64,000 nucleotides of DNA from Clostridia bacterium (GCA_045656005.1 JAZOQG010000032.1:1438-65437); one strand, 5' to 3'. Shown: positions 51,521 through 56,171, counted from the stretch's first letter. A program made the numbers and translations. Notes: generated by a model from the letters alone, not told the origin.

Positions 51521-52270
51521 ATGAATTTACGAGTGGAATTTATCGGAGAAAAAATTATAATTCGGACTGAAAAAAAGATAGTGGAGTATCAACTTGGAAC
51601 CATAACCTGTATGATATCTGCTGGTGAATGGGACGAACTTTTACAGTTTTTAGAGGCTCAAAAAGATTATAAAAAGATAGAAAAGTATGCAACTAATTTT
51701 TTAGATAAGTGTTTTTACAGCAGAGAGAAAATTTCAAAAATAAATGGATATATGCTCTGCGATAGTGAACTGAATTTAAGTAATAAAAATTATATTTCAA
51801 ACAAAAAAGTAAGCGGAAGAATGTTGCAGGGAAAAGCAGATTTAGTTGTTTTGGATGTTTATTTAATTGATTCACTAATTGATTTAATTAATCTTGAAAT
51901 GATGTACGCAGTTATCAATGATATGCCGATTAACAAATGCAAGAATTGTAATAAATATTTTGTTGCCGGCAATGCCGCAGCTCTATTTTGTGACAGACTT
52001 TATACGGAAGATAAAACCTGCAAGCAGTTCGGCGGAAAGAAATCTTTTGTTGATAAATTAAAAAGAGACGAGGCGCTTTTAAGATACGAAAAAGTGTATC
52101 AAGCAACTTACTATCGCTTACGAAAAGCAGAGAAACAAGATGAAATTGATGCATTAAACAAGCGATTACAAGATCTAAAAAACTGGCGAGTAAGATACAA
52201 AAACGGAGAGGTTAAAGAGAAACCTTTTATCGAATTTGTTGAAGGATATGGATGGGTAAAGAAGGAGTAG
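51521..52270 (+). CDS. Hypothetical Cys-cluster protein immediately upstream of hamA
   Basis: 249 aa with a CKNCNKY...C...C putative zinc-binding cluster. It runs up to the hamA RBS, and its stop is 6 nt before the hamA start. Confidence 0.5.
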   Translation: MNLRVEFIGEKIIIRTEKKIVEYQLGTITCMISAGEWDELLQFLEAQKDYKKIEKYATNFLDKCFYSREKISKINGYMLCDSELNLSNKNYISNKKVSGRMLQGKADLVVLDVYLIDSLIDLINLEMMYAVINDMPINKCKNCNKYFVAGNAAALFCDRLYTEDKTCKQFGGKKSFVDKLKRDEALLRYEKVYQATYYRLRKAEKQDEIDALNKRLQDLKNWRVRYKNGEVKEKPFIEFVEGYGWVKKE

Positions 52271-52275
52271 TTTTT

Positions 52276-53058: not shown

Positions 53059-56000
53059 TTGAAAAAAGTGCTCAATACTATTTAAAGCGTGCACGTGCTT
53101 CTGCGAAAGAAAAGGAATTCGATGTACCACACGAGCTGCAGGCAAGAAAAGATGTTAATATTGACGAGCTATTTCCATTAACGATAGCATGTATTTCCGA
53201 TTTGTCAGTTAAGATTACAAAAGAAGATATTTCGGTTGATGAAGTAAAAAACTACTATGATGAGTTATATTTTGCATCGAAATTTTATGATTCGTATTTA
53301 TATATAAATAATTCTGATAATATTTCTGATAGAAATTACTTTTATCTTGTAGGCGCAATAGCATATTATTTATGCGACCAAATAGGAAGTTCTTTAGTAT
53401 TGGCTAATAAAATTAGCATTAAAACTTTAAATCTTTCCTGTAATCAATTAGACATTCTTATTTGTGCTATGCTTCAAAATGTTGAAAAAATTGAATTGAA
53501 TTTAAATGAGAACAATATATATTCGAGATATATCAAGCAGTTTGTTGAAGCTTATAATAAATTAATGTCAACCTCAATTAAATTAAATCCTAAATGGATT
53601 GCTGAATTTAGAAGCGTTGTATACGATACTAAAAGCGATAGGGATATATTTCTAATAGACGTTCTATTGGCTATATTCATTCTTAAAACCAACTATTCTA
53701 TATTTAATTTATTACCCAATCATTCGCCAATTTCTTCAGAGATGCTGACTGAAATAGTTGGGAGCAATCATTTTGTTAGAGAAATGTGGCCGTCACAACG
53801 CTATATGTGTAAGCTTGGATTTTTCAATGGAAAATCAGGAGTCGTTCAAATGCCGACAGGTGCTGGAAAAACAAAAGCTGTATCAATGGCAATTTATTCA
53901 TCTTTTTGCAAAGAAGGTAATAATCTGTCTGTTGTAATTGCTCCATTTAGAGCCTTGTGTAGAGAAATAAGTGATGATCTAAGAACAGACTTAGAATTTG
54001 ATGATAATATTCGTGTTAGCGAAATATCTGATTTATTGCAAATTGATTTTGAACTAGAAGACTTGTTTAATCCGGACAGAAAAACTGTAGTAGTCACTAC
54101 TCCGGAAAAGTTTTTATACATATTACGTCAAGATGATGGTCTTGTTAATAGTATAAGTCAACTTATTTTTGATGAAGGACATTTGTTTGATGACGAAGAA
54201 AGAGGAGCAACATATGAACTGCTTATAGCATCTATTCTTAACAAAATAGATGTAGGGACTCAAAAAATTCTTATATCAGCAATTATACCTAATGTTGATG
54301 AGATAAATACTTGGTTTGCAGGAAATGAAGGTATTCCTTTTAAAGGGGATAACATCTCTACGGTTGATAAACTTCCTGCTGTTTTGCGTTGGGAATATAT
54401 TGATGGAGGGAATTATTGCTATCTTTATTACATTGATAAAGAAAATAAAGATGACTTTGATTTTTATGTTCCTAGGATGCTTGAGGTTAAACAGATAGCT
54501 AATAAACCAGGTGAAATTTCTCCAAGATATTTCCCTTTTGTTGATTTCGCAAAAAATAAGATGAGAGAATCTAACGATATGGCAATTTCATGTTTTCTCA
54601 AAATTGCTAGTAAGGATAATGTGGCTATTTTTTGTGGTAGAAAAGATAGTGCAAATAAAATACTAGAAAGAATTATTGACCTTCATGAACGTCAATTCGA
54701 TATATCTTCTTTACAACAAAGAGCAAACAAAAAGGAAATAGAGAGAATTGCTAATTTAATAAAAGAGAATTATGGAGAAAATAACTTTTTGTACTTTGCT
54801 GCTAAATTAGGTGCATTTGCACATCACAGAGGAATAACTGATGGTATAAAAAATTCAGTAGAATATGCTCTTAAAAAAGCATATATTACCAATGTAGTTT
54901 GCACATCCACTTTAGCACAAGGAGTAAATTTGCCCATAAAATACCTTATAATATCTAGCATTTATCAAAGTAATGAGCAAATTAAAGTTAGAGATTTTCA
55001 TAATCTTATAGGCAGAACAGCAAGATCGGGGATGTTTACGGAGGGAACAATTATTTTTTCAGATCCATTTGTTTATAGAAGTTTGAAAAACGGTTGGAAA
55101 TGGAGAAAATATAAAGAATTATTAGATTTCAATAATTCAGAAAAATGTAGCAGTGTGTTATTAGATATCGTTAGAGTTAAAGAGATTAACAAGATAGAAT
55201 ATAGTTTTTTTAAAATAGCCAAAGGATACTATGATGATCGTGAAAAACTTATTGAAGATATGGATGAATATTTTAGTAAAAACATTAATGATCAACTTAA
55301 AAATTGGTACAATCATATAATTAAGACTCTAGGGAAATTAGAAAACTATATTGCAACAATAATTGCAGATAATGACAATACATATTCTGATGATTTGGTA
55401 GACGAAATGTTGAGTGGAACTTTGGCTGAAACTTTGGCGACTGATGACGAGAAGATAAATCTGCGAGAATTGTTTGTTAAAATATGTGAATATCTTATGC
55501 GAACTATGCCGGAAGAGCAAGTAAAACGTAATTTTTCAAAATCTTTGATCAAGAGTGAAGACTATGTTGCTTTACAAGGGGAAGTCACTTCGTTGGATTA
55601 TGATGAAATGACGAATGACGATTTGTTAGAATTTCTATTAAAGATGATTATGAAATATGGTTCGCCCCATAATCTTAATAAAATGGAATCAGTACAACAG
55701 GTTGTTGATCTTGCAAAACTATGGATGCAAGGTACTAGTTATCATACAATTAAGGATTTAGATTTTTTGTATGATTTTAAAATTAAGAAGCGTGGCAACT
55801 ATGTTGAATTAGCTGTAGAAGATATTCTTGCAATCTGTGATGGAGACTTCGGTTATTCTGCATCTCTTATAATAAGCAGTATAGTTGAAATATTATCTTC
55901 GATGGATTCAGAGGGTGAATATTTTGAAACGATAGAAGAAATCAAAGAAATAGGCCAACAACTAAAATATGGGTTAGAAAAGCAAACTGAAATTTTTGTA

Positions 56001-56171
56001 TATGAGTTGGGATTCAATGATCGCTTTATAGCTAAAGAAATAACAAAAATTATAGGTGAACATTCAAAGAAGAAAAATGTTAGAAAGGCAATAAAAGCTA
56101 ACGAATTTGAAATCGATGTATTCTTGGATGATTATCCTTCATTGTATCAAGAAAGGTTGCAGAACCTTTAA
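53052..56171 (+). CDS. hamB: Hachiman HamB-like SF2 (DExH) helicase
   Basis: Walker A MPTGAGKTKAV, motif II DEGHLF, and a helicase C-terminal domain (HHRGI...TSTLAQGVN, GRTAR). It has an about 250-aa N-terminal extension and is translationally coupled to hamA. Confidence 0.65.
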   Translation: MLIEKSAQYYLKRARASAKEKEFDVPHELQARKDVNIDELFPLTIACISDLSVKITKEDISVDEVKNYYDELYFASKFYDSYLYINNSDNISDRNYFYLVGAIAYYLCDQIGSSLVLANKISIKTLNLSCNQLDILICAMLQNVEKIELNLNENNIYSRYIKQFVEAYNKLMSTSIKLNPKWIAEFRSVVYDTKSDRDIFLIDVLLAIFILKTNYSIFNLLPNHSPISSEMLTEIVGSNHFVREMWPSQRYMCKLGFFNGKSGVVQMPTGAGKTKAVSMAIYSSFCKEGNNLSVVIAPFRALCREISDDLRTDLEFDDNIRVSEISDLLQIDFELEDLFNPDRKTVVVTTPEKFLYILRQDDGLVNSISQLIFDEGHLFDDEERGATYELLIASILNKIDVGTQKILISAIIPNVDEINTWFAGNEGIPFKGDNISTVDKLPAVLRWEYIDGGNYCYLYYIDKENKDDFDFYVPRMLEVKQIANKPGEISPRYFPFVDFAKNKMRESNDMAISCFLKIASKDNVAIFCGRKDSANKILERIIDLHERQFDISSLQQRANKKEIERIANLIKENYGENNFLYFAAKLGAFAHHRGITDGIKNSVEYALKKAYITNVVCTSTLAQGVNLPIKYLIISSIYQSNEQIKVRDFHNLIGRTARSGMFTEGTIIFSDPFVYRSLKNGWKWRKYKELLDFNNSEKCSSVLLDIVRVKEINKIEYSFFKIAKGYYDDREKLIEDMDEYFSKNINDQLKNWYNHIIKTLGKLENYIATIIADNDNTYSDDLVDEMLSGTLAETLATDDEKINLRELFVKICEYLMRTMPEEQVKRNFSKSLIKSEDYVALQGEVTSLDYDEMTNDDLLEFLLKMIMKYGSPHNLNKMESVQQVVDLAKLWMQGTSYHTIKDLDFLYDFKIKKRGNYVELAVEDILAICDGDFGYSASLIISSIVEILSSMDSEGEYFETIEEIKEIGQQLKYGLEKQTEIFVYELGFNDRFIAKEITKIIGEHSKKKNVRKAIKANEFEIDVFLDDYPSLYQERLQNL

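Follow-up and report, generated by a model that had tools for sequence, protein, structure and literature searches.

Whether the hamA and hamB genes of a Hachiman defence system form one functional unit with a third gene lying directly upstream of them is the question raised by positions 51521-56171 of a 64,000-nucleotide stretch of Clostridia DNA (GCA_045656005.1, JAZOQG010000032.1:1438-65437; this whole stretch is referred to as the window). A first-pass annotation of the sequence described here three co-oriented open reading frames (ORFs) of 249, 260 and 1039 aa, the last two overlapping by 7 nt, and suggested a three-gene operon, with a conserved third Hachiman gene as a point to be checked. 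All three frames, and the overlap (53052-53058), are present. As a transcription unit the operon is probable; as a functional system of three genes it could not be upheld, since the upstream gene, a member of the DUF6076 family, also precedes unrelated cargo. We consider it very probable that the locus as a whole represents an integrative mobilizable element (IME) with a variable defence slot, in which Hachiman is the cargo, DUF6076 is a backbone gene, and the cargo is run from the DUF6076 promoter. The three genes in question are:

51521-52270, plus strand: DUF6076 gene, 249 aa, with four invariant cysteines; backbone gene bordering the cargo slot (Pfam PF19553, E=3.9e-13)
52276-53058, plus strand: hamA, 260 aa, DUF1837 PD-(D/E)xK nuclease effector (PADLOC and Pfam HamA)
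53052-56171, plus strand: hamB, 1039 aa, Ski2-like SF2 helicase sensor (PADLOC and Pfam)

The decisive evidence came from comparison of the window with 24 related DUF6076 loci, four of them found by exact-protein look-up and twenty by a scan of one genome per species (compared loci are designated by L numbers). When aligned by blastn, the window loses its homology with nine loci precisely at 52267, in the final sense codon of the DUF6076 gene, and in seven loci bearing other cargo homology resumes at 56201-56207, about 30 nt past the hamB stop codon. The slot in the window is thereby placed between 52268 and about 56204, and the two breakpoints indicate that the exchangeable segment comprises hamA and hamB and essentially nothing else. 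About a dozen cargo sets were found to follow DUF6076 genes whose protein products are 58-96% identical:

Hachiman: the window, L005 and L007 (93-97% identical proteins), and L035
type III-A retron (PRTase and reverse transcriptase): L010, L018
AbiH: L008, L017
Gabija, of two different kinds: L011, L023
Ietas: L022
OLD-like ATPase and methyltransferase, on the opposite strand: L014, L016
SatD/DUF3307: L002
853-aa pentapeptide-repeat protein and GmrSD/HEPN: L001
four-gene set starting with a tetratricopeptide repeat (TPR)-HEPN_LA2681 protein: L009, L012, L020
proteins without family assignment: L004, L006

Strong PADLOC matches were obtained for seven of the 12 cargo types. The slot is thus a fixed position between conserved flanks, occupied by alternative gene sets, most of them serving anti-phage defence. 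Specificity of the upstream gene for Hachiman, on which the three-gene proposal depended, does not hold, as other cargo follows the same gene.

The same conclusion is reached from the side of Hachiman. Among 519 HamA relatives compared, those of at least 80% identity are all preceded by DUF6076 and lie in the same element family. Relatives at 61-69% identity (L029, L031, L032-34) are plain two-gene hamAB pairs with unrelated upstream neighbours, lacking DUF6076, and their HamB proteins are 1035-1044 aa long; a third gene conserved across Hachiman loci, which the proposal would lead one to expect, was not found there. Because the same gene precedes about a dozen other cargo sets and the nearest hamAB relatives from outside this element family lack it, DUF6076 is a mobile-element backbone gene and not a Hachiman component. 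The known third Hachiman gene product, HamC, is a DUF3223 protein (PMC11914072), and the upstream protein has no DUF3223 match, so that the locus does not classify as type II Hachiman.

Several further observations concern the occupants of the slot. In two loci (L008, 886-956; L017, 642-707), about 70 nt past DUF6076 are 84-87% identical to the 5' end of L023 gajA and are then followed by AbiH; this gajA remnant looks like a scar of earlier Gabija cargo, and as such would be direct evidence of cargo turnover. The four-gene cargo (L009, 10761-16306; L012, 2143-7688; only the first three genes are shared by L020, 2279-6419) gave no PADLOC match. It encodes a 498-aa TPR and HEPN_LA2681 protein, a 460-aa protein with a weak phospholipase D-like match, and two further proteins of 422 and 470 aa, and is a candidate new defence system. 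In two metagenome-assembled genomes the element occupies one and the same chromosomal position, and the right flanks are nearly identical (L007, 6182-6240; L011, 10526-10585), with Hachiman as the cargo of the first and Gabija as that of the second; the L007 flank is also an 85% match to window positions 58222-59000. An optional module of D12-class and N6_N4 methyltransferases and two small ORFs is inserted between the cargo and DUF6809 in some loci (L001, 15258-18362; L010, 3980-7082; L011, 6551-9652, minus strand). It is absent from the window element, and may have an anti-restriction function. An inverted repeat across the cargo junctions (TGGGTAAAG on the left, CCTTACCCA on the right) pairs at eight of nine positions in the window; its variable positions do not co-vary between loci, and it was treated as a chance occurrence.

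Identification of the pair itself as Hachiman proved correct, as the PADLOC profiles HamA1 and HamB1, Pfam and alignment to the solved structure 8VX9 all agree, DUF1837 and HamB profiles being matched as anticipated. HamA fits the HamA1 profile PDLC00161 with E=6.4e-97 over residues 2-260, and Pfam HamA (PF08878) with 42 bits at a cutoff of 25. HamB, whose best-matching PADLOC models are those of HamB1, aligns to PDLC00188 with E=2e-302, residues 1-1038 lying on profile positions 1-1035 of 1037, and contains the Pfam domains DEAD, ResIII and Helicase_C. Residues D124, E145 and K147 of HamA form the D...ExK triad, and the latter two align to E138/K140 of the solved HamA (8VX9_A), catalytic residues whose mutation abolishes both nuclease activity and defence (PMC12278908). 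The GAGKT, DEGH and GRTAR motifs are kept in HamB (alignment to 8VX9_B, E=1.6e-35). As judged from its sequence, hamA/hamB is a complete, known type I Hachiman with intact nuclease and helicase motifs. A long N-terminal extension, which had been ascribed to HamB, was rejected, as PDLC00188 covers the whole protein end to end and ECOR31 HamB has a similar N-terminal region, with about 300 residues ahead of a helicase core that begins near residue 300 in the solved protein; this part is the normal N-terminal region of the given HamB subfamily. A 268-aa form of HamA starting at 52252 is unlikely, since such a start would lie inside the DUF6076 gene without a ribosome-binding site, and the PADLOC profile begins at residue 2 of the 260-aa form.

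In gene content, order and overlapping frames the pair resembles ECOR31 HamAB (8VX9) and the type I Hachiman of B. cereus B4087; the HamA1/HamB1 profiles are covered from end to end, and both the nuclease triad and motifs I, II and VI of the helicase are preserved. With the solved E. coli proteins the pair shares only about 20-30% identity, and in a plain sequence search HamA was matched with E=0.046. What distinguishes the window pair from known type I systems is that it apparently lacks its own promoter and is carried on a transcript of the mobile element. According to the literature on ECOR31 HamAB, HamB restrains the HamA nuclease until damaged or free-ended DNA is met, and ATP-driven helicase action then frees HamA, which leads to DNA degradation and abortion of the infection. 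By analogy, the window proteins may act in the same way, HamB holding HamA until damaged or free-ended DNA triggers its release, with degradation of DNA and abortion of infection as the outcome.

Horizontal acquisition of the block, suggested by the first-pass annotation from its strong AT-richness, was confirmed, as the pair is cargo of a mobilizable element. The compositional sign itself is real but modest, the GC content being 0.312 in hamAB, 0.364 in the left backbone, 0.377 in the right backbone and 0.375 in the window outside the element. The element and its remaining parts, including the expression signals discussed below, are:

47265-56920, no strand assigned: the IME, 9,656 bp, with shared termini and differing flanks, inserted in the chromosome
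47320-48951, minus strand: large serine recombinase (Pfam Resolvase, Recombinase, Zn_ribbon_recom and DUF4368); last gene of the mob operon
49049-49982, minus strand: three small ORFs of the backbone, encoding 94, 103 and 129 aa and located between the relaxase and recombinase genes, without family matches
49984-51111, minus strand: MobL/MobP3-family relaxase, first gene of the leftward operon (Pfam MobL, E=2.6e-19; NCBIfam MobP3, 264 bits, cutoff 150; each exceeding its curated cutoff)
51200-51290, no strand assigned: GC-rich block with a hairpin (stem 51246-51252 / 51269-51275), candidate origin of transfer (oriT), from a 13-locus alignment
51373-51401, plus strand: DUF6076 promoter, TTGACT-17-TATAAT, extended TG
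51402-51434, plus strand: inverted repeat after the -10 box, CAAGAAACAAAG-N9-CTTTATTTCTTG (12-N9-12), operator or 5' mRNA stem-loop
52262-52267, plus strand: AAGGAG Shine-Dalgarno sequence within the final codons of DUF6076, with a spacing of 8 nt to the hamA ATG; left slot boundary
56205-56920, minus strand: right-hand backbone
about 56242-56292: conserved hairpin of the right backbone, 3' of hamB
56314-56352: putative bidirectional terminator hairpin of the right backbone, perfect 16-bp stem
56332-56616, minus strand: DUF6809 gene (Pfam DUF6809, E=1.8e-22)
56616-56891, minus strand: 91-aa ORF, right-end module
56910-56882, minus strand: promoter-like site of the 91-aa ORF (promoter scan)

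The ends of the element were located by pairwise blastn of the window against all loci. The left terminus at 47265 (tggtgcggat...) is common to seven loci (L002, L004, L006, L009, L013, L019 and L022), and the right terminus at 56920 (...gtcaacgaaggaatt) to seven others (L007, L008, L010, L011, L012, L016 and L020), while the flanks differ from locus to locus, except for the right flank common to L007 and L011. The 9.7-kb element integrated in this Clostridia chromosome has a backbone of three parts. These are a leftward operon of the MobL/MobP3 relaxase, three small ORFs and the DUF4368-type large serine recombinase; a rightward DUF6076 gene, whose strong and invariant putative promoter is located in the intergenic region between it and the relaxase gene; and a right-end module of DUF6809 and the 91-aa ORF. 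The slot extends from the stop codon of DUF6076 to the conserved, putatively bidirectional terminator, its content varying by element and being here a complete type I Hachiman. Since both a relaxase and a recombinase are present and conjugation machinery is absent, the element is classified as an IME: all ORFs of at least 60 aa within 47265-56920 are accounted for, and there is no type IV secretion system gene among them. Scans for tRNA genes and Rfam families revealed neither a tRNA attachment site nor a known RNA inside the element, and the window contains no helper element.

In every locus with enough upstream sequence, the MobL relaxase gene is divergent from DUF6076 and is followed by the three small ORFs and the large serine recombinase, in this order. 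The small ORFs are conserved in order and sequence where the region is retained, orf94 being absent or fragmentary in L001, L016 and L021. The recombinase is 88-97% identical in nine loci; in the same three loci (L001, L016, L021) a 553-aa recombinase of 26% identity stands in place of the 543-aa one, next to the same MobL and DUF6076. Conversely, in L021 and L022 a 58%-identical DUF6076 with a different leader lies beside a 94-96%-identical MobL and a promoter region of about 95% identity, the breakpoint falling directly after the -10 box. The backbone modules are therefore mosaic and shuffled independently. The candidate oriT region shows 89% mean identity over 13 loci, with the block CCCCGAACGGCACTGCCGGTCGGTGTTTGA invariant and pairing kept in the hairpin, the apical part of which varies. 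The two hairpins that the first-pass annotation had placed after hamB do exist (fold z-score -5.7), in a region of 88% mean identity in nine loci with different cargo; both lie in the conserved backbone, and therefore are not part of the Hachiman unit.

With regard to insertion, the left end lies 0-12 nt after a strong host terminator-like hairpin in all eight loci (window, 47205-47264; L002, L004, L006, L009, L013, L019, L022). These host hairpins have fold z-scores of -3.3 to -9.5 and unrelated sequences; the element may thus either seek out terminators or persist only where it has inserted next to one. Metagenomic contigs often break in or just upstream of the MobL-DUF6076 region (L005, L007, L008, L010-L012, L014, L017, L018, L020, L023), as would be expected if near-identical backbones with different cargo coexist in one sample.

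How is the cargo expressed? The DUF6076 promoter is the best sigma-70 match in 47000-57500 (11 of 12 positions); among 13 loci its -35 hexamer is invariant and its -10 box nearly so. The terminator scan found no terminator-like site from this promoter to the end of hamB, the first one being the 16-bp palindrome at 56314-56352, which could stop transcription in both directions. DUF6076, hamA and hamB are thus probably contained in one transcript initiated at the DUF6076 promoter. AAGGAG is embedded in the three final sense codons of DUF6076, AAG AAG GAG, which are conserved. Between the DUF6076 stop codon, whose last base is 52270, and the start codon of hamA there are 5 nt, and in five cargo types, including Gabija and TPR-HEPN, the first cargo ATG lies 8-13 nt past AAGGAG. 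It is probable that hamA is translated from the ribosome-binding site supplied by the three DUF6076 codons. We propose that hamA and hamB, devoid of a promoter of their own, would be transcribed from the DUF6076 promoter, and that an integrated element would in this manner express whichever defence cassette occupies its slot.

Several points weigh against this interpretation. Neither an excised circle or circular junction nor an empty site was recovered for the element. The crossover dinucleotide of the serine recombinase is not definable from the termini, as none recurs consistently at the two ends, and a TT core is compatible with only about half of the left junctions. The cargo is on the opposite strand in L014 and L016, and in L010, L018, L002 and L022 it begins 60-180 nt downstream, where a promoter of its own is possible. 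Inverted or distant cargo means that the expression platform is not obligatory; both co-transcription and use of the embedded ribosome-binding site are read from sequence. The role proposed below for DUF6076 has behind it no relative of known function, either in sequence or in predicted fold. Finally, every close DUF6076 locus has both a mob module and cargo, so that a link between DUF6076 and defence in general is possible.

A separate problem is what the DUF6076 protein does in the element. Its cysteine cluster, noticed in the first-pass annotation, is real: C140, C143, C157 and C167 (CxxC-x13-C-x9-C) are invariant in 20 homologs. Apart from a weak NinG match (E=0.065), which was disregarded as a sign of relationship, DUF6076 is the only Pfam family found at E<=0.1. 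No match was obtained in PADLOC, NCBIfam or PHROGs, nor in a profile search of PDB sequences, and fold comparison of a structure model (predicted local distance difference test score 73) gave no significant match. The family comprises 2,495 clusters (50% identity, E<=1e-3), and its conserved core is the C-terminal half, with the four cysteines and three long helices. Among plasmid records, only distant relatives were found, in those of C. difficile and Subdoligranulum, and a literature search revealed no paper mentioning DUF6076 or DUF6809. Distant members, too, are divergent from operons for replication or mobilization, here those of other integrative elements: in L026 the gene is divergent from an operon of HTH_17, replication-organizer and DnaC-like genes, in L040 from Mob_Pre and AAA_25 followed by a tyrosine integrase, and in L044 from AAA_25, adjoining a type I restriction-modification system. 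The contigs of the latter two (L044, 2906-8424; L040, 1-5067; DUF6076 of 24-30% identity) are classed as viral and look more like small integrative elements than phages.

An inverted repeat of 10-13 bp begins no more than 3 nt from the -10 box in all 13 loci, and its three sequence versions track three sequence classes of DUF6076. We tentatively suggest, with low confidence, that DUF6076 is a zinc-binding, DNA-binding regulator of its own transcript and hence that of the cargo. Autoregulation is favoured over a role as directionality factor or relaxosome protein because of the invariant cysteines, the context of distant members, the co-variation with the palindrome, and the lack of co-variation with recombinase (variants of 26% versus 88-97% identity) or with MobL (94-96% identical where DUF6076 is 58%). 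A bolder version, rather unlikely in its entirety, would make DUF6076 a new kind of zinc-binding regulator that binds its own palindrome and couples cassette expression to the state of the element or to infection. The elements would then be a self-expressing shuttle of defence cassettes among gut Clostridia, targeting host terminators, and new defence systems would be represented by the unassigned occupants, namely the TPR-HEPN set, the pentapeptide protein of 853 aa, and two proteins of 352 and 292 aa.

The alternative that DUF6076 is an accessory of transfer or recombination, acting either on the serine recombinase as its directionality factor or in the relaxosome by binding oriT, with cargo that merely landed beside it, is unlikely. 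It would account for the constant linkage to MobL across a highly conserved intergenic region with a candidate oriT hairpin, and zinc-ribbon proteins often bind DNA. However, in L001 and L016, where a 26%-identical recombinase has taken the place of the usual one, DUF6076 is still 88-90% identical, and it falls to 58% where MobL and the oriT-like block are about 95% identical (L021, L022); a partner-specific accessory is disfavoured because such factors are expected to co-vary with their partner.

We regard it as quite improbable that DUF6076 is a regulator associated with defence in general, comparable to those of the BrxR and CapW types that lie ahead of many different defence systems, and that it would switch the cargo on at phage infection and not serve the element. 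Its position directly upstream of, and co-oriented with, the cargo in 11 of 12 cargo types, the palindrome at its transcription start, the invariant zinc-binding motif, and the restriction-modification system adjoining the distant member in L044 are all compatible with such a role. Nevertheless, close relatives were never seen without the MobL module, the cargo of L014 and L016 is inverted, the distant members in L026 and L040 have integrase or replication genes as neighbours and no visible defence genes, and there is no likeness to known regulator folds. Hardly credible is a dedicated third subunit or regulator of HamAB, like HamC (type II) or PezAT (Pez-Ham): the tight co-oriented arrangement with its 5-nt gap and probable co-transcription, the presence of DUF6076 before all HamA relatives of at least 80% identity, and the existence of extended Hachiman operons (PMC13064477, PMC11914072) speak for it, but the same DUF6076 is found ahead of about a dozen unrelated cargo sets, it is missing from the nearest hamAB relatives that lie outside the element family, the protein matches neither DUF3223 nor any PADLOC model, and homology breaks exactly between DUF6076 and hamA.

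In the type II hamC-hamA-hamB operon, the Streptococcus PezAT-HamAB operon and the trypsin-MBL Hachiman, as probably in the window, hamAB has its promoter in common with an additional upstream gene of the same orientation, and in Pez-Ham such upstream genes tune ham expression (PMC13064477). The window differs from these extended operons in that its upstream gene, DUF6076, is unrelated to their proteins and not Hachiman-specific.

The carrier is better compared to other mobile elements. With the TndX/TnpX-type mobilizable transposons of Clostridia (Tn4451/Tn5397) and with multi-targeting recombinases it has in common a DUF4368-tailed large serine recombinase, insertion at numerous unrelated sites, and the presence of a mobilization gene in an element of small size. 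The cargo is phage defence instead of antibiotic resistance, the relaxase family differs, and the window family inserts consistently within about 12 nt of a host terminator hairpin. Exchangeable defence hotspots are known from P2 prophages, P4-like satellites, phage-inducible chromosomal island (PICI) satellites, hotspot 5 of the SXT integrative and conjugative element (ICE), and integron cassettes under the Pc promoter. These, together with pipolins, are alike in having a conserved mobile backbone with one fixed slot for alternating defence systems between conserved flanking genes; expression from an element promoter has its counterpart in integron Pc and in prophage morons. The window element differs in its backbone of MobL/MobP3 relaxase, DUF4368 serine recombinase, DUF6076 and DUF6809, residing in gut Clostridia, and in a slot that starts at a stop codon, with the ribosome-binding site of the cargo in the last codons of a conserved gene. 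Defence hotspots of pipolins have been described (PMC11551731), gut Faecalibacterium IMEs and ICEs are reported to carry many defence systems (PMC12084326), and DUF4368-bearing recombinases belong to a multi-targeting clade (PMC10083194), which fits the many insertion sites seen here. No description of the present backbone was found in the searched literature, general papers on IMEs and defence included, and this defence-carrying element family is apparently undescribed.

As Hachiman itself is known, it is the carrier that is useful. The family is widespread in metagenome-assembled genomes of gut Clostridia, each element holding a single defence system, preceded by a conserved promoter, leader gene and ribosome-binding site. 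This provides a precise mining rule for new anti-phage genes, which are to be sought in the interval from the stop codon of DUF6076 to the DUF6809 terminator; several occupants of this interval have no known family. The pair of elements found at the same site with Hachiman or Gabija (L007/L011) shows defence exchange between near-identical elements. A misreading as three-gene Hachiman, which automated neighbourhood analyses could repeat, is corrected, and the case also bears on the packaging and expression of immunity genes by small mobilizable elements.

Outside the element, the window consists of housekeeping chromosome, with genes for SMC, Tex, RecD2 and a pyrophosphatase. To the right of the element, host genes at 59571-60908 and 58231-58863 (both minus strand) encode proteins with repeated CxxC zinc ribbons and lie beside membrane proteins (DUF6591). 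Far to the left, a 6S RNA (SsrS) gene at 1265-1462, minus strand (Rfam RF00013, 80.9 bits), confirms the chromosomal context.

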